From the NCBI GenBank assembly GCA_039809385.1, contig JBDHUY010000002.1:132058-196057 (forward strand): 64,000 bases of DNA, read 5' to 3'. The first letter of the stretch is position 1. Every line of letters starts with the position of its first letter. Shown here piece after piece: positions 32,984 to 38,947 of the stretch. The position numbers were made by a program, and so were the translations under genes. The DNA comes from Candidatus Altimarinota bacterium (GTDB lineage Bacteria; Patescibacteriota; Gracilibacteria; JBDHUY01). The notes beneath the pieces were generated by a model. It saw only the letters and a program-made list of their open reading frames with translations, had not been told where the DNA came from and did not search any database.

Positions 32984-34961
32984 ATGAAACAGCCAAACGC
33001 AAGCACTCCCAGTAACGAGAGACCAGCTTCAGAACCGCCAGAATACCCTGCCTTAAGCCAAATGATCTACAGAGCGTCGCAAGCGTTAAAAGAAGCGGCT
33101 CAGAAAGCCGATCCCGGCTTTGGGTTAAAGTATCCAGAACTATTACGCATAGGGATTGAGCTGGTACAAATGGACATTCGTAACGATGTTGAAGAACCTG
33201 CAGAATTGAAAAATCTGATGACGGAATTATGGAATTATAAAGAAGCTATCCTGACAGAACAGAAAACTTTGGAACAAGGAGATTTTGAAGGAGAAGATTC
33301 TGAACAAAAACGTGCCAAGAAAAAATTGAATCAAGGACTAAAGCAAAAACCTAAGAATCAAAAACAATACCTGGCCATTTTTTTTAGGACGGCTGGTACA
33401 AGTAGAAAAGGATGCGACAAGCAGAATACGGAAAGAACAGGCCAAAAAGGGTGCCAGTCGTTTGGAATCGTATCTGGCAGTCGAAGCGTACATTTATCAA
33501 AAATCCTGGCGGCAAAAATATATCCGATCGCTGTATGTATTGTTAGGTCTGGCCGAGGCAAGCATCATCGGAGACTGGAAAGTTAACCGAGATCATGAAG
33601 TTGGCGACATGCTCGGTACGATTCCTCTCCCAGAAGTACTCAAGCTCGTATTATGTTTTTATCTGGAAAGCGGGCTGCTAAAAGATACCAATCCGATCCA
33701 GGACGGAAAGCTAGTCTATTTTGACGGCGGCTGCGGGAACGGAGCTCTCATCGAGTGGCTGCGCCGTAATACCGACACAAAGCCGTTTGATCAAGAAAAT
33801 TTACGCTTGATCGATTTTTATGGTCATATCGGATTCGCCGACAGGATTTTGTACGATCTCAAAGAATTGCTACGCTCTTTGATCAACCCTCATCTGACAG
33901 AAGGGGAACGAAAGGCCGTAGATGAGTTTATCGAAATCGTCTGTACGCTGGTTCTCCAGCACGCCTTTTTTTATAAGCAATCCGGAAACATAGCGCCTAA
34001 AGCGATTGGGAAGCTGGCGAAGGATCCGAATCAGATCAAGACAATTTTCAAGGATTTGACGAAATTTATACCAAAAATTCTCAATCTGGATAGTATCAGA
34101 GCCGACGGAGAATTCATCGGAGACCGCCAGTTTACTGTTTCTCATGAGTGTCGTACGCTGCTGGAAACATATTTTTACCCAAAAGGTCAGCAAGACGGTA
34201 CAGATTTCATGAAGCGGTATTTCGTGCCTGATTTTGAAACAATAAACCTCGCCGAAAAGATTCCCATTAACTTTCATAATGTCATCTTGGGACGATTCGA
34301 GACCATAGATAACCAAATTCCGATCGAACCGCTCTGGAATATTGCCTCTTTCTGCCGTGCGACGTCGCATTTACCAAACGAAGAATATGCGAAGTTTATG
34401 GAAAAGGCATGCAGGTATTCAAAACCGGGAGGACTGATCATCGATGACGGTATTGTGGAATCCCAGACACGGTATTTACGTTTGCAGGAAATACTCGATA
34501 TCCAAGCAACGCTGGGAACTGAGTTTGCCTTCTGGATTATAAAAGATAAAACCAGTCATCGGATTTCTCTCCTCATACAGCGAGGATTGCAAAATAGCCA
34601 AAAACCCGGTGACTATCGTTTCTTCGATACGAAATATCTAAATCAGTTGATTGCCAAAAGATCCCAAATTTTTGATATTCAATCATTCGCACTAGGACAA
34701 ACTCCTACGAATCGTGTTATAGCGCACGTCATTCATAAGTTGAAAGAACTCTTTACTACCACTCCCTTTAACGGAATTTATTTGAGATCGACCGGATTTC
34801 AGGATCTGCATCCTCTGATTTTTGATACGGTAAAAAGGCATCTTCCCCACGGAGAACTTGATAAAACGAAAACCGAAGCTACTGCCTGTAACGTTGTAAA
34901 CGAAATCAGTTTACTCATCCCGGAAATTCGGAAAAAAATAGTACAAAGTCTCTCCATTTAG
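32984..34961 (+). pseudogene. Class I SAM-methyltransferase-like protein, frameshifted at a T8 run (33378-33385)
   Basis: Removing one T fuses ORF 32984 with ORF 33462 (...YLAIFLGRLVQVEKDATSR...LESYLAVE). Motifs YFDGGCGNG and SKPGGLII. Confidence 0.65.
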
Positions 34962-36568
34962 ATGCACTTCCCCAGAACCATTTCAATAATTTTGGCATAA
35001 CGCTGGATAAAATCGTTGTCGAATATCTCGAGTTTCTTCTCTGGCGAAACGTATAAGCCCAGGCTTCCCACCAATTTCCCTTTCCATTGCAGCGGTATAA
35101 CCATCAGCGATGACAGATTATTCTGCCGGGCCAGATGCGGCGTCTGATAGTAGGGATCTTTCGTAACATCGATGATTCTAAGTACGGTTTGTTTCTGGTA
35201 GGCTTTTTGTACGAGACTCTTTTCGTATTTTATAGTCGATTTGCCATACCACTCGTTGCCTACGCCAAAACACGAAACCATTTCCAGCGTATTCTTTTTC
35301 TCGTTATAAATTCGCAAAATACACGCATCCACATGACTAAGCATGACGATCGAGCTTACGATAAAATCAGCCAGAGCTTTTTTATCCAGCGAACGGGCAG
35401 CATCCAGCAGGTCAAAAATATAATCCATCTGACGCCGCATGATGCCGAACTGATTATAGGCCTCTTTCATCTTTTGATAGCGCATGGCCAGCTCTTCCTC
35501 GAACCGGCTTTCCTTACTGATATCCCGACCGATCAGAAGAAAATGGGTGATCGTCATCCGGTCTTCGGCAAAAATAGGCGTAATGGTCGTTGCTATGGCA
35601 AATGAATCTTTATTTTTGTGCTGACCTTCAAATTTATCCGTATAGGTACGACCGATACTGCTCTCATGATATTCTTCTATCTGTAAAGTCGGCAAAAGCC
35701 GGTCGATTCCCATGCCGACGATCTCTTCCTGGCGGTAGCCGAAAATAACTTTGGCGCCCTTGTTCCACGAAAGAATTTTGCCGGCTTTGTCGAGAAAAAT
35801 AATCGCATCCGAGGCGTATCGAATAGCGCTGTGGAGCATTTTTTCAGTTTCCTGACGTTGCTTGAGCTCCGTGATATCGGTCAAAATAGCCATAGTACCT
35901 CCGTCGGGCATAGGCGTACCGTTCGCCAGAACCGGGATTTTGCGACCGGATTTGCTCAAGAGATTACCCTCGTAGGAAGAGGTTATTCCTTTTTTACGAT
36001 GATGTACGTTGATATATTTGACACGTTTGGCGCTTTCTTCGTCCCAGAACTGGTACGAAGGGATACCGATTATGTCGTTCAAATCATATTCAAGCATCGC
36101 ACAGAAACGCGGATTGGCATAAACAGTGCATTCGCGCGCATCGCCCATCCACAATGCCTCGCTCATATTGTCGACGATCTGTTTGTACTGCGAATCTTTT
36201 TTCTTTATCTCGCGCAGATCGGTCATCATGCCGATTGTATTGCCATTGGGCAGCGCCGCTCCGTGGACGAGTACCGGAATACCATCTCCTAGTTTGGGAA
36301 CCAAGACTGCTTGATAGGTTGAATTTAATCCTTTTTTACGGAAGTTTTCATTGTTATACTTTACCTTTTTGATGCTTTCGTCATCCCACAAAAAATACGC
36401 CTCTTTGCCTATTATTTCATCGGATGTATATCCGAGCATCGAGCAAAATTTCGGATTGGCATAGAGGGTTCGTTCGTTCGGATCTGCCATCCAGACCGCC
36501 TCGTTCATATTTTCCACAAGTGTCTGATAGAGCAGCTCTGAACCGGTATTGTCTTTTTTGGATGTCAT
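34958..36568 (-). CDS. PAS-PAS-PAS-GAF sensor protein without an output domain
   Basis: Three PAS repeats (VENMNEAVW..YANPKFCSMLGY; VDNMSEALW..YANPRFCAMLEY; SDAII..SWNKGAKVIFGY), then a coiled coil and a C-terminal GAF (SLMVIPLQWKGKLVGSL). Confidence 0.88.
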   Translation of the reverse strand: MTSKKDNTGSELLYQTLVENMNEAVWMADPNERTLYANPKFCSMLGYTSDEIIGKEAYFLWDDESIKKVKYNNENFRKKGLNSTYQAVLVPKLGDGIPVLVHGAALPNGNTIGMMTDLREIKKKDSQYKQIVDNMSEALWMGDARECTVYANPRFCAMLEYDLNDIIGIPSYQFWDEESAKRVKYINVHHRKKGITSSYEGNLLSKSGRKIPVLANGTPMPDGGTMAILTDITELKQRQETEKMLHSAIRYASDAIIFLDKAGKILSWNKGAKVIFGYRQEEIVGMGIDRLLPTLQIEEYHESSIGRTYTDKFEGQHKNKDSFAIATTITPIFAEDRMTITHFLLIGRDISKESRFEEELAMRYQKMKEAYNQFGIMRRQMDYIFDLLDAARSLDKKALADFIVSSIVMLSHVDACILRIYNEKKNTLEMVSCFGVGNEWYGKSTIKYEKSLVQKAYQKQTVLRIIDVTKDPYYQTPHLARQNNLSSLMVIPLQWKGKLVGSLGLYVSPEKKLEIFDNDFIQRYAKIIEMVLGKCI

Positions 36569-37662
36569 ATCGAAGAATTCAAGGAAATCAGTATTTTTTT
36601 ATGCGTCTCGCGATTGATCCGGTATGCCAACCAGCGTCTGGAAACTTGTTTTTGAGAAGATCCTAAAACCGTAACCTCATCGCCATTCCTGAGCCGGTAT
36701 GACAGGCGCCGACTCATACCGTTTACGATCGCACCGGTAACGCAATCGCCCAGATCGGTGTGAATCATGTAAGCCAGATCCAGAACTGTAACATCAGGGT
36801 CAAGAATAATGATATCACCTTTAGGAGACAGACAGTAGATTTTACGGTTTTTTTGGTTGAATGCGCTAACTGTCGGCGTGGGCAATAGCGATTTTTTGTG
36901 TCGCGCATAAACCCAGTGCACCGCGCCACCGTGTTCGGCATATTGATCCATTGAATATGTACGGATTTGAATTTCGACCGCTAGAGTCAAATTAGGAATA
37001 ATATCTTTCAACCCGGTATGCAGGCTACGGTATCCGTTGATTTTGGGAATACTGATATAGTCTTTAAAAAGATGTGGTAGCGGTGTAAAGCGATCATGAA
37101 GCAGGTTCATGATTTCGAAACAATCTTCGCTGCGTTCGTGAGAAAGAATGATTCGGCACGCGAAGATATCGTTGAGGTCAAAAATATCAATTTTCCGTTT
37201 TTCCCGCATCTTTTTAAAAATACTGTAAATATTTTTATATCTGCCGATAATCAGGACAGGATAGCGGGGTACTATGAGATCACGCAGCTGCTTCAAAATC
37301 CGGTTGATGAGATGACGGGATGTTTGTTTAAAGGCTCGCAGAGCAAGGTCGAGTCTTTGATAATCTTGCGGGTACGCGACTCGAAAGCAGTACCGGTCCA
37401 GAAGCGCTCGCTGTTGAATAAATCCGAAGCGTTCGGCCAAAGGAGAGAGTACTCCAAGGTAGGCGGAAGCTAGTTTCTGCTTCTCATCGTTTCTTTTGAG
37501 CCGGGCCAGATGGATATGAAAATAGCTTAAAAAAGCACCGAACACACTGACATCGTTGGCTACGCCGTCCAAAATATACTGAAGCAGCCGGTCGCGATTA
37601 CGGGGATGCTCGTTGGCTTCTTGCAGAAAATAGATCCAACGTGCCGAAAGTAAATCATTCAT
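36565..37662 (-). CDS. RelA/SpoT-family synthetase + TGS protein lacking an intact HD hydrolase and the C-terminal ZFD/ACT domains
   Basis: GRYKNIYSIFKKM, DIFACRII, KDYISIPKINGYRSLHT, EIQIRT and AEHGGAVHW; TGS SPKGD...LDLAYMIHTDLG...VNG. Confidence 0.9.
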   Translation of the reverse strand: MNDLLSARWIYFLQEANEHPRNRDRLLQYILDGVANDVSVFGAFLSYFHIHLARLKRNDEKQKLASAYLGVLSPLAERFGFIQQRALLDRYCFRVAYPQDYQRLDLALRAFKQTSRHLINRILKQLRDLIVPRYPVLIIGRYKNIYSIFKKMREKRKIDIFDLNDIFACRIILSHERSEDCFEIMNLLHDRFTPLPHLFKDYISIPKINGYRSLHTGLKDIIPNLTLAVEIQIRTYSMDQYAEHGGAVHWVYARHKKSLLPTPTVSAFNQKNRKIYCLSPKGDIIILDPDVTVLDLAYMIHTDLGDCVTGAIVNGMSRRLSYRLRNGDEVTVLGSSQKQVSRRWLAYRINRETHKKILISLNSSI

Positions 37663-37978
37663 CGATGGGTATCCTGAAATTGACTACTTGTCACCAGTCT
37701 ATCCGAGAAAACTACTTTGTAAAGCACAAAACACACTATTGTCAATATTATTTGTTGGCTTATTGTAACAAATAATGACATTGCGTTTTTTTTTCATATA
37801 TTGCTTAGGAATTAGGCATATTGCATTTGACTCCCAGACATCTTCTATAGCGCCAGAAAGACTCGTCGGGAAGGGAATCACTCTTGACTTTGAAATACAT
37901 TTTTGTATTATCAACTCCTTGCCAGGGATACAAACACAATCAAAAACCAAAGCGTTTCTTTCTTCTGATTTTTTTCAC

Positions 37979-38947
37979 ATGAAGCGCTTCTTAACGTTTG
38001 TATTCTTGCTTGCCTTAACCGGAGAATTTGTCTTTCTGGCTGTTGTCCGGGAAGTCAATCAGACCGAACAAAAGATACGTCTGACCAGATTGTCCGATAT
38101 TTCAGCGGTACCGCCGCCATCGGAAAAGATATTACCGGACCAAAAGAATGGATCACCGGATATACGTTCAGTCGCATTTGAAACGGATTCCCTCAAAACC
38201 AGCGATTCTTATCCGAAAATCCGTTCTGCCGCGCCGGTAGTCGTACCTTCCGTGCTTCGGGGCGCCAAAAGAACGTTCACCAATCGCGATTTTGCCCGTA
38301 ACTTCGACCGGATGGTACGCGAGAGCACTGTTGTAAGCGGCGCCGAAAAGAAAGAGGAAAGTGACCGTGTCAAAACCCTTCTATACAAGACAAGTCAGCA
38401 ACTTCCGCCATCACACCAAAAAGCTCTCCAGTATTTCATGTTACATCTGGATTATAACGAGACCCGCGGGCTGGCCGGACAGAATACGATGATCCTGCAT
38501 ACCGGGACGCTTCCCGACCGGGAAATTGAGGCGGTATATATTCACGAAATGGGACATGTGGTCGATACCGGACTGTTTTTAGGCAGCAACGACGCTTTTC
38601 CCAGCAATTTCAGCGACGGGAAAACACAAGTCTTTTCCAACGATCCGAGCGTCAGTTTTTACAGCATTTCCTGGAAATCCAATCAGGAACAACATCAAGG
38701 AAGCACGAAGCGGGATTTCGTATCGGGATATGCCATGAGCGATCCGTTCGAGGATTTTGCCGAAAGTTATGTTTTTTATGTATTGTCGGGAAGAACATTC
38801 CGGACTATGCTCCCCAGCAGTCCAAAACTTGAGCAGAAATATAAATTTTTACAAGAGATTGTCTTTCAGGGGCGGGAGTTTGACACAGGTGTCCCAGCCA
38901 GCGATACCGAGACACGTGTTTACGATGCCACTAAAATAACTTCGTAA
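37979..38947 (+). CDS. Membrane-anchored/secreted zinc metallopeptidase
   Basis: N-terminal hydrophobic helix; HEMGH and FVSGYAMSDPFEDFAES. Confidence 0.82.
   Translation: MKRFLTFVFLLALTGEFVFLAVVREVNQTEQKIRLTRLSDISAVPPPSEKILPDQKNGSPDIRSVAFETDSLKTSDSYPKIRSAAPVVVPSVLRGAKRTFTNRDFARNFDRMVRESTVVSGAEKKEESDRVKTLLYKTSQQLPPSHQKALQYFMLHLDYNETRGLAGQNTMILHTGTLPDREIEAVYIHEMGHVVDTGLFLGSNDAFPSNFSDGKTQVFSNDPSVSFYSISWKSNQEQHQGSTKRDFVSGYAMSDPFEDFAESYVFYVLSGRTFRTMLPSSPKLEQKYKFLQEIVFQGREFDTGVPASDTETRVYDATKITS

Follow-up and report, generated by a model that had tools for sequence, protein, structure and literature searches.

A conserved gene pair of a hydrolase-less RelA/SpoT homologue and an output-less PAS-GAF sensor: a candidate alarmone signalling unit in Peregrinibacteria-like bacteria

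In the window analysed here, a stretch of 64,000 nucleotides from contig JBDHUY010000002.1 of a Candidatus Altimarinota bacterium, a gene encoding a RelA/SpoT homologue (RSH) overlaps a gene encoding a sensor protein composed of PAS domains, a signalling helix and a GAF domain. The RSH-sensor pair is a conserved unit, and a structure prediction for the complex of the two proteins, run with controls, supports their direct binding. We propose, at about an even chance, that the pair is a dedicated signalling unit of Peregrinibacteria-like bacteria of the candidate phyla radiation (CPR) in which the sensor would gate the access of the acceptor nucleotide to the synthetase. What we draw on was all computed: that the two genes form a pair, that this pair is conserved, that the motifs are intact and that the proteins are predicted to bind. 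An original prediction, made by a model from the letters of the window, had held that the sensor regulates alarmone synthesis in trans, and this is the best reading because the pair is conserved, the enzyme is motif-complete, the sensor has no output domain and binding is predicted (0.66 for the pair and 0.00 for the controls); the role in defence that it offered as well is unsupported.

The RSH gene lies at 36565..37662 on the minus strand and encodes 365 amino acids (an HD remnant with central helices, a synthetase, a TGS domain and a short helical tail). The sensor gene lies at 34958..36568 on the same strand and encodes 536 amino acids (PAS-PAS-PAS, signalling helix and GAF). As the original prediction had read it, the stop codon TGA of the first gene and the start codon ATG of the second overlap as ATGA at 36568-36565 (minus strand; ...TCG ATA TGA CAT...). 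The sensor gene is found directly 3' of the RSH gene, on the same strand, at 20 of 20 loci (the window and 19 from related genomes and the GTDB species collection), with a gap of -119 to +29 nt as measured from the longest open reading frame (ORF); a 21st contig (L043, 3.6 kb) holds fragments of both genes. Every one of the 14 genomes of the class that carry the RSH also holds a top-tier sensor (577-731 bits) on the same contig, adjoining the RSH gene, so that conservation of the pair, a check put forward with the original prediction, is seen in the count of loci (20/20) and in that of genomes (14/14). Pairwise distances among the RSHs correlate with those among the sensor cores (r 0.84; 0 of 2000 permutations as high), which shows co-inheritance of the two proteins and not their interaction. 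Mean identity is 47% for the sensor and 41% for the RSH. Of the 12 sequencing runs listed as containing the locus, from five studies of activated sludge and wastewater, none is recorded as RNA.

The RSH belongs to a family that has a sharp boundary. A search of 5.8 billion proteins returned about 96 family clusters at 90% identity (296-421 aa), with scores that run from 826 down to 202 bits; RelA_SpoT is found in all 96 clusters, TGS in 95 and HD_4 in none, and the RSHs that bear HD_4 start at rank 97 with 177 bits. The source labels include Candidatus Peregrinibacteria and Candidatus Altimarinota, together with single metagenome-assembled genomes (MAGs) labelled 'Bdellovibrionota' and 'Pseudomonadota bacterium'. 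The sole close relative (P0002, 86% identity) is on a contig of 1538 nt. In a phylogenetic tree the family stands apart from all 47 long RSHs, including those from the same class and the genome's own two, on a branch of length 1.48 with an SH-aLRT support of 100. The tree (IQ-TREE 'quick'; 75 rows, made up of 26 family members, the two divergent members G081 and G265 and the 47 long RSHs, with duplicate loci and the weak or partial rows L006 and L031 left out) is unrooted and has no outgroup of small alarmone synthetases (SASs); it shows separateness, not origin.

Fourteen of 401 genomes of the class carry the RSH family (440-541 bits), and they are spread over eight GTDB families; among the 401, one genome (G081) has an intermediate score of 336 bits and the ordinary long RSHs score 320 bits or less. 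Half of the 14 matches (7/14) span one or two stop codons at the 3' end, and these are forms with a shorter C-terminus. The relatives include genomes with in-frame TGA, and on this ground and that of the source labels the organism probably belongs among the Peregrinibacteria-like members of the CPR class in which the Gracilibacteria are placed too. One such TGA-recoded locus (L148, G265:C9, code 25) has a strongly diverged set of three genes: the RSH has 342 aa, the sensor 425 aa, and the third, convergent gene encodes a methyltransferase-like protein with a glutamine amidotransferase (GATase) domain, 1122 aa in all. Both genetic codes of the class are thus represented among the carriers of the module. 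The clade member of G081 (L169, G081:C2; 462 aa) has an N-terminal extension of 116 residues without HD_4, no TGS match at the threshold and no sensor neighbour, and it is possibly an intermediate or a degenerate form. Full RSH-sensor pairs are also found on L041 (JAXLVP010000002.1, a 1.87-Mb contig labelled Bdellovibrionota) and on L042 (JACRJW010000013.1, Candidatus Uhrbacteria); either the module extends past the Peregrinibacteria-like lineages or the labels of these MAGs are wrong.

The RSH lacks the first 105-130 or so residues of the HD domain and retains the last part of that domain with the central helices, because the alignment of the family profile to Rel of B. subtilis (6yxa) begins at Rel residue 133. 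We take the missing residues to include the metal-binding His/Asp ligands of Rel. The 'LADRLHN' stretch of Rel is aligned by the profile to 'fyefleflk' in the family (FLSYFHIH in the protein of the window), and Pfam finds no match to HD_4 (PF13328) in the RSH. Residues 59-347 correspond to residues 155-458 of the genome's own Rel at 36% identity (BLASTP). Residues 1-130 (37273..37662, minus strand, as for all parts of both genes) make up seven helices equivalent to the C-terminal part of HD and the central helix bundle of long RSHs. The SYNTH domain follows at residues 136-256 (36895..37257), with its catalytic and acceptor-site residues all conserved; within it the G-loop region, residues 199-211 (FKDYISIPKINGY; 37030..37068), forms the acceptor-nucleotide site, and the predicted interface with the sensor centres on it. 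The TGS domain (residues 275-334; 36661..36840) carries the invariant 'IHT' histidine, H301. Pfam matches RelA_SpoT (PF04607) at residues 140-256 with an E-value of 2.3e-30 and TGS (PF02824) at residues 278-333 with an E-value of 1.6e-14. The protein ends at residue 365, about 30 residues past TGS, so the helical, ZFD/CC and ACT/RRM domains are absent.

Scores against curated models and structures place this protein nearer to the long RSHs. The NCBIfam model of long RSHs, TIGR00691, gives 218.5 bits (cut-off 499.2) and aligns only from model position 126, and the SAS model YjbM gives 38.3 bits (cut-off 320). An AlphaFold2 (AF2) model built from an alignment of 50 family members has a mean local confidence (pLDDT) of 90.9 and a global one (pTM) of 0.84; its layout is seven helices at residues 3-130, the synthetase at 136-256, a disordered linker at 248-269, TGS at 275-334 and two short helices. 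Its top Foldseek matches are long RSHs (B. subtilis Rel 6yxa, E 1.3e-23), and the best global fold match is to the closed full-length SpoT chains of 7qpr (TMq 0.70-0.74); the SAS structures RelQ and RelP match with E-values of 3e-7 to 4e-6. In the 50 family members R141, K143, D165, R170, Y211, H215, E230 and Q232 are invariant in the synthetase, as are D295 and H301 in TGS. Fifty positions are conserved both in the family and in the 47 long RSHs, the whole of the G-loop included; those in TGS are G282, D295, F296, A297, H301 and N314. A further 18 positions are conserved in the family only: the start Met, 11 in the N-terminal helices (residues 9-115) and six in the synthetase. The RSH is a motif-complete enzyme under selection. 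A complete set of synthetase motifs, a TGS domain with its histidine, a truncated and degenerate HD region and the absence of ZFD and ACT had all been noted in the original prediction, and each of these points stands. By its defining architecture the RSH belongs neither to the long RSHs nor to the SASs: it has the SYNTH and TGS domains of a long RSH, with HD (or a full-length pseudo-HD) and the helical, ZFD and ACT domains absent; a SAS is a lone SYNTH domain, and here HD is absent yet the protein has a TGS domain and the central helices typical of long RSHs.

The sensor contains three PAS stretches according to Pfam (PAS_9, PAS and PAS_8; PAS_9 E 1.8e-34) and matches TIGR00229 with an E-value of 8e-51. 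Its GAF match is marginal (PF01590 23.0 bits against a cut-off of 22.4; GAF_2 24 bits, under the cut-off of 28.6); GAF annotation (PF01590/PF13185) is present in many members of the sensor family, and the Atlas features of residues 351-536 agree with those of GAF clusters at 0.93, with 181-196 features in common. In the AF2 model (pLDDT 89, pTM 0.50) the PAS domains occupy residues 8-117, 119-231 and 233-349, the signalling helix residues 351-391 (35396..35518) and a GAF-like alpha/beta domain residues 396-535 (34964..35383). The model is matched in Foldseek by the multi-PAS proteins DosP, PpsR, FixL and NifL (the last in the NifL-NifA complex). A search with sensor residues 236-536 gives a family of 65 clusters (90% identity) at 269-667 bits, followed by a drop to 80 bits, where ordinary histidine kinases are matched. 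No kinase, GGDEF, EAL or HTH output domain was detected in the sensor (Pfam and NCBIfam) or in the 65 family clusters (365-886 aa), and the position of the sensor stop is fixed by the overlap with a convergent gene. The original prediction had described a protein made only of PAS domains (three), a coiled coil and a GAF; Pfam, the AF2 model, in which the coiled-coil stretch is a single helix, and these clusters bear it out. PF04607 occurs in none of the 65 sensor clusters (365-886 aa), so no RSH-sensor fusion was seen among them; longer or shorter forms were not searched with the RSH as query. The number of PAS domains in the family ranges from one (L039, 296 aa) to four or more, and the constant core is the last PAS domain, the helix and GAF. 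The helix (EEELxLKYQKxxEAYNxFGIxRRQMDYIFELL) is among the best-conserved stretches, with K366, R379 and Y383 invariant. Six low-tier sensor paralogues have neither an RSH nor a methyltransferase-like neighbour; four of them (L152-L155, in G201, G276, G140 and G249, mostly of one GTDB family; 340-367 bits) lie between pheT and a gene for a class A penicillin-binding protein and have lost several interface residues.

The complex was predicted from the whole RSH and residues 123-536 of the sensor, the latter as a monomer, with alignments that we built ourselves. The interface score ipSAE was 0.61, 0.66 and 0.67 for the pair and 0.00 for all three controls, a favourable outcome for the complex prediction that had been named as a check. 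Of 157 solved complexes, 116 attain the mark that we use for this score, as do 2 of 215 mismatched pairs; these figures hold only roughly for alignments of our own making. At least 65% of the contacts are common to the runs, and the partner has a pLDDT of at least 81. On the RSH the predicted interface comprises residues 182, 185-186, 189, 196, 199-202, 204-208 and 210, which is to say the G-loop and the helix that precedes it; on the sensor it comprises residues 364-386, in the C-terminal half of the signalling helix, and residues 402-410, the first helix of GAF. At two of these RSH positions, 182 and 186, all 47 long RSHs (100%) have Y and G, where 88% of the RSH family has F and N. Within residues 351-536 of the sensor, conservation is higher at the interface positions than elsewhere (0.83 versus 0.64), and Y364, N372, F374, F402, S406 and M409 are lost in the six sensor paralogues that do not adjoin an RSH. 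The conservation of F182/N186 and of these sensor residues lends the interface modest support. We know of no solved complex of an RSH with a PAS-GAF sensor, and in our judgement the memory of a solved structure is for that reason an unlikely source of the score.

In PMC11782079 the G-loop is described as the acceptor-nucleotide site, toxic SASs that produce nucleotides are silenced by Tis1-type domains that occlude that site, and tRNA-modifying toxSASs are blocked at the ATP donor site. It is because the predicted interface falls on the acceptor site, and because occlusion of the Tis1 type offers a precedent, that we favour a gate. In the proposed mechanism the RSH clade has given up the active site of the hydrolase and the C-terminal domains that bind the ribosome, and it retains a complete synthetase of the (p)ppGpp type and TGS. 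Produced together with the output-less PAS(n)-helix-GAF sensor from overlapping or abutting genes, the enzyme would form a complex with it in which the C-terminal half of the sensor helix and the first GAF helix sit on the G-loop. In the resting state the sensor would hold the synthetase off, and a ligand or a redox change at PAS and/or GAF would shift the helix, freeing or re-orienting the enzyme to make (p)ppGpp from ATP and GDP or GTP; other hydrolases of the genome (Rel, SpoT-like and HD-only) would take care of the degradation of the alarmone. What we infer is the product, the ligand and a default state of inhibition, as well as an input from uncharged tRNA through TGS. Of the possible products (p)ppGpp seems the likeliest, because the acceptor-site residues are conserved in common with long RSHs. 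The TGS histidine of RelA and Rel is linked to the sensing of uncharged tRNA, and by analogy its conservation here means that the RSH may still sense uncharged tRNA through TGS.

Several points weigh against this proposal. Only two of the 18 family-specific RSH positions fall in the predicted interface, where about 0.7 would be expected; most of the RSH interface residues belong to the catalytic site and are conserved in every RSH, so they are uninformative on binding; and the comparison of paralogues is based on five and six related sequences. The complex score is a measure of model confidence. Signalling helices of such sensors usually form dimeric coiled coils, and a helix exposed in the fold of a monomeric sensor could draw in a partner as an artefact; that the helix is simply sticky is, however, made less likely by the score of 0.00 in all three controls. 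The binding prediction is equally compatible with inhibition and with activation, and the long branch of the RSH family could hide a change of substrate. The sensor occurs without an RSH in G156 and G227 (top-tier) and at three mid-tier loci, always beside the methyltransferase-like gene, and the divergent clade member of G081 has no sensor; the pairing is therefore not obligatory in either direction.

The methyltransferase-like gene, which the original prediction had overlooked, is a third linked gene at 33462..34961 on the plus strand (499 aa), and its stop overlaps the stop of the sensor gene. Pfam and NCBIfam find no match in this ORF, and a search for proteins of near length returned two proteins, itself and a 636-aa relative at 70% identity, neither with a Pfam match. 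With a hidden Markov model iterated over the loci we found homologues adjoining the sensor at 16 of the 25 loci of the top and middle tiers, most of them in a tail-to-tail arrangement in which the ends overlap; these 16 are 11 of the 20 RSH-bearing loci and all five sensor loci without an RSH (L146, L147, L149, L150 and L151). At no fewer than seven loci (L035, L037, L040, L041, L042, L162 and L163), within the DNA recovered, the RSH and the sensor are found without it. The family consensus contains the motifs GxGNG and LxPGGxxxxDG, which may be read as class I methyltransferase-like; together with an agreement of 0.90-0.92 with Atlas class-I methyltransferase clusters, they give a lead only. 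Longer members end in a GATase of the GMP-synthase type (PF00117 E 4.9e-9 in L036; profile against PDB E 3.6e-9), and the GATase was the only part of them that the profile search of PDB matched. Members range from 436 to 1554 aa, and examples are L034:7002-9941, L036:5773-8508, L146:5292-7958, L147:698-4015 and L158:7702-11532. From this distribution the sensor has the look of a hub that serves two clients, either in alternation or at the same time.

The original prediction had taken the RSH for an unopposed synthetase, which it is not: a full Rel, a SpoT-like hydrolase and five proteins with HD only are encoded in the same genome. In 1.87 Mb this genome has five RelA_SpoT matches (four above the cut-off) and eight HD_4 matches. 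Another full-length Rel, whose presence the original prediction had proposed to check, is found on contig C6 (G000:C6, L002/L007), with HD and SYNTH motifs intact and with TGS, Cys-rich and C-terminal regions (by eye and Pfam). By eye, the HD dyad of a 644-aa RelA-like RSH (G000:C2:370-2304, L001) is replaced by 'LLHN' and its synthetase is intact; in a SpoT-like RSH in an open frame of 1130 aa (G000:C3, L006) the HD motifs are intact, the synthetase is degenerate ('FVQILS' stands where EIQIRT is usual) and the tail is hydrophobic. The five ORFs with HD_4 only (L009-L013) are of 257-342 aa. All ten of the other module genomes tested have one to seven HD_4 matches, at least one of them in a long RSH; the counts were made in module genomes only. 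With at least nine genes, the alarmone toolkit is unusually large for a CPR-type genome of 1.87 Mb. The neighbours in the window are housekeeping genes (ATP synthase genes, a tRNA, recX, recA and folD). PADLOC gave a weak PDC-S33 match to the RSH (59 bits) and no match to its three neighbours, the sensor among them. The locus is not visibly a defence island.

These observations bear on readings of the module that differ from the gate. The sensor may instead be an activator or scaffold whose docked helix orders the acceptor site or opens an auto-inhibited enzyme, so that synthesis needs the ligand-bound sensor. The compact AF2 model of the RSH (pTM 0.84), with closed SpoT (7qpr) as its best fold match, suggests a self-inhibited resting state, DarB is a known trans activator of long RSHs, starved ribosomes likewise stimulate Rel, and the binding prediction would suit activation equally well; we nevertheless consider activation rather unlikely, given that the predicted contacts cover the G-loop (199-210) and fit more easily with occlusion, for which PMC11782079 supplies the precedent. 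It is unlikely, in our estimate, that the sensor is a ligand-gated hub that in one state plugs the acceptor site of the synthetase with its signalling helix and first GAF helix and in another engages the methyltransferase-like/amidotransferase enzyme. Were it so, one metabolite or redox cue, possibly nitrogen or purine status, would decide whether a CPR episymbiont enters a quiescence driven by alarmones or runs a different enzymatic programme. A related reading makes the methyltransferase-like/amidotransferase protein the real client of the sensor, with the RSH regulated through TGS by uncharged tRNA and the operon shared for co-expression. The adjacency of the third gene and the sensor at 16 of 25 loci, including all five without an RSH, and the conservation of the TGS residues common with long RSHs speak for it; the complex prediction stands up to its controls, the RSH and the sensor are found without the third gene at seven or more loci, and sensors that do not adjoin an RSH have lost several interface residues, and on these grounds we hold it to be very unlikely.

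A toxin-antitoxin or abortive-infection-like pair would have a toxic RSH that makes (pp)pApp or, aided by TGS, pyrophosphorylates the CCA ends of tRNA, and a sensor that acts as a trigger-released antitoxin. The overlapping bicistronic layout resembles that of toxSAS loci, as PMC7229694 describes them, and the predicted plug at the acceptor site resembles neutralisation of the Tis1 type (PMC11782079). The module is also patchily spread (14 of 401 genomes in eight GTDB families), and the RSH has its weak PDC-S33 match of 59 bits. TGS domains bind the 3' ends of tRNA, which would fit the second of these activities. Against such a pair, the acceptor-site residues of the long RSHs that make (p)ppGpp are all kept; the RSH is nearer to long RSHs than to SASs (218 bits for TIGR00691 versus 38 for YjbM; Foldseek 1e-23 versus 3e-7); the 'antitoxin' would be a multi-domain sensor of 296-886 aa that is better conserved than the enzyme (47% versus 41%); the context in the window is housekeeping and the sensor has no PADLOC match; and the pair co-diverges like a vertically kept unit. 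The defence or toxin-antitoxin role raised in the original prediction is unsupported, and we rate it distinctly unlikely. That the RSH is a decaying fragment of a long Rel beside the sensor by chance, the outcome that would have undone the original prediction, is a negligible prospect: HD and the C-terminal domains are indeed missing, but about 96 clusters have the same architecture with invariant catalytic residues, the family is a separate clade in the tree, the genes are linked at 20 of 20 loci and the AF2 model has a pLDDT of 90.9. Gating by the sensor remains the reading that we prefer, at the even chance given above.

Upstream of the RSH gene there is a perfect inverted repeat of 10 nt (ATTATTTGTT/AACAAATAAT; 37747-37756 and 37767-37776, minus strand), 85-114 nt from the start codon, and a TTGACA adjoins it at 37745-37740 (minus strand). 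Both are present as the original prediction had reported. The repeat is only mildly unusual and is not conserved. When the intergenic region (316 nt) was shuffled by dinucleotides, 13 of 2000 shuffles contained such a repeat, but there are 20 in the 64-kb window, so that it is not strongly non-random. It is possibly an operator or a hairpin; as a conserved operator it was rejected, as no comparable shared motif was found 5' of the RSH gene at the 19 other loci. GC-rich repeats upstream in L158 and L037 resemble terminators of the preceding gene. With 8 sites, where shuffles gave 6.5 +/- 2.3, a promoter scan offered no evidence; the TTGACA of the window was not among the promoters it listed, and the window's own -10 element is poor. 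By eye, good sites of the TTGACA-N17-TATAAT kind lie within about 100 nt upstream of the RSH start in L161, L163, L042 and L035. These sites suggest that the RSH-sensor pair has a sigma-70-type promoter of its own.

Two flanking reading frames, ORF200 (32984-33586) and ORF390 (37775-38947), have no homologue in the related loci. The latter is divergent from the RSH gene (plus strand) and has weak matches to zinc metallopeptidases (Peptidase_Mx E 1.1e-5, below the cut-off), with an 'HEMGH' motif by eye. A hydrophobic stretch inside the frame (MKRFLTFVFLLAL...) suggests that the true start is about 68 codons past the first ATG.

The inputs known for RSHs are the ribosome with uncharged tRNA, allosteric nucleotides and a handful of binding proteins. 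If the proposed gate is real, the RSH-sensor operon adds a direct sensory input to alarmone synthesis, in reduced-genome CPR bacteria whose growth control is poorly understood; if the hub is real, this would be the first PAS/GAF-controlled RSH, and its partner-switching design is undescribed for alarmone signalling. The predicted interface names specific residues for mutation, which makes the idea directly testable. We found no description in the literature of a SYNTH-TGS RSH with a PAS-GAF partner or of the alarmone enzymes of Peregrinibacteria. The RSH clade is probably outside the RSH censuses of 2011 and 2020, because these used completed or RefSeq genomes and the supplements of the latter show no such entry: 'Peregrinibacteria' and 'Gracilibacteria' have no occurrence in five supplementary files of PMC7229694, one of which is incomplete.

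Among known systems the long RSHs (namely Rel, RelA, SpoT; 6yxa and the genome's own Rel) have the same order of central helices, SYNTH and TGS and are the best matches of the RSH in sequence and in fold. The RSH differs from them in that it has no active-site half of HD and no helical, ZFD or ACT domain, stands on a long supported branch and has a dedicated partner gene. RshC, in the passage of PMC3153485 that describes it, ends within the helical domain, keeps TGS and has no CC or ACT domain, which is the same C-terminal truncation; it is set apart from our RSH by description only, being given there as [HS], with the hydrolase domain kept, and with no sensor partner described in that passage. 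The SASs RelQ and RelP resemble the RSH in having a synthetase without a hydrolase and in the fold matches given above, and differ in lacking TGS and the central helix bundle, in oligomerising via a C-terminal helix bundle (PMC11782079) and in a much weaker sequence match.

Closest in genetic layout are the toxSASs and Tas1-Tis1, which in PMC7229694 and PMC11782079 combine an overlapping operon with a hydrolase-less synthetase and a partner, as the RSH pair does with a partner whose binding is predicted. The conserved, often overlapping bicistronic operon by which toxSASs are recognised is found here too (ATGA; 20/20 loci). The pair is unlike them in that the partner reads as a large PAS-GAF sensor and not as a small antitoxin, a pZFD, Tis1 or a small alarmone hydrolase (SAH), in an enzyme that is nearest to the long RSHs, and in a context that is neither mobile nor defensive; PAS and GAF are the only Pfam domains of the sensor, and PADLOC matches nothing in it. 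To our knowledge, every hydrolase-less synthetase with a partner of its own has until now been the toxin of a toxin-antitoxin pair. PpsR and NifL (the latter with NifA) are output-less multi-PAS proteins with long connecting helices that signal by protein contacts, as we propose for the sensor (Foldseek E 7.6e-18 for PpsR, 4hh2, and 1e-12 for the NifL-NifA complex, 9qq6); their partners are transcription regulators and not an alarmone synthetase, and the matches reflect the PAS fold and not specific kinship.

Regulation of an RSH in trans has precedents in DarB/CbpB, EIIA-Ntr/HPr, ACP, YtfK and NirD, which are named in PMC13376610, and in alpha-proteobacteria a glutamine-binding GAF domain, that of EI-Ntr, gives an upstream input to (p)ppGpp, according to PMC6606846. 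As would be the case for the sensor, a separate ligand-sensing protein there binds an RSH and sets its activity; those regulators act on full-length bifunctional enzymes, whereas the sensor and the RSH described here are a dedicated, co-inherited pair. We know of none that is encoded in an operon with an RSH, and of none that is a PAS-GAF protein. What is new is the RSH clade together with the type of its dedicated partner; the logic of a synthetase controlled by a partner, possibly by gating of the acceptor site, is one that known systems already use.

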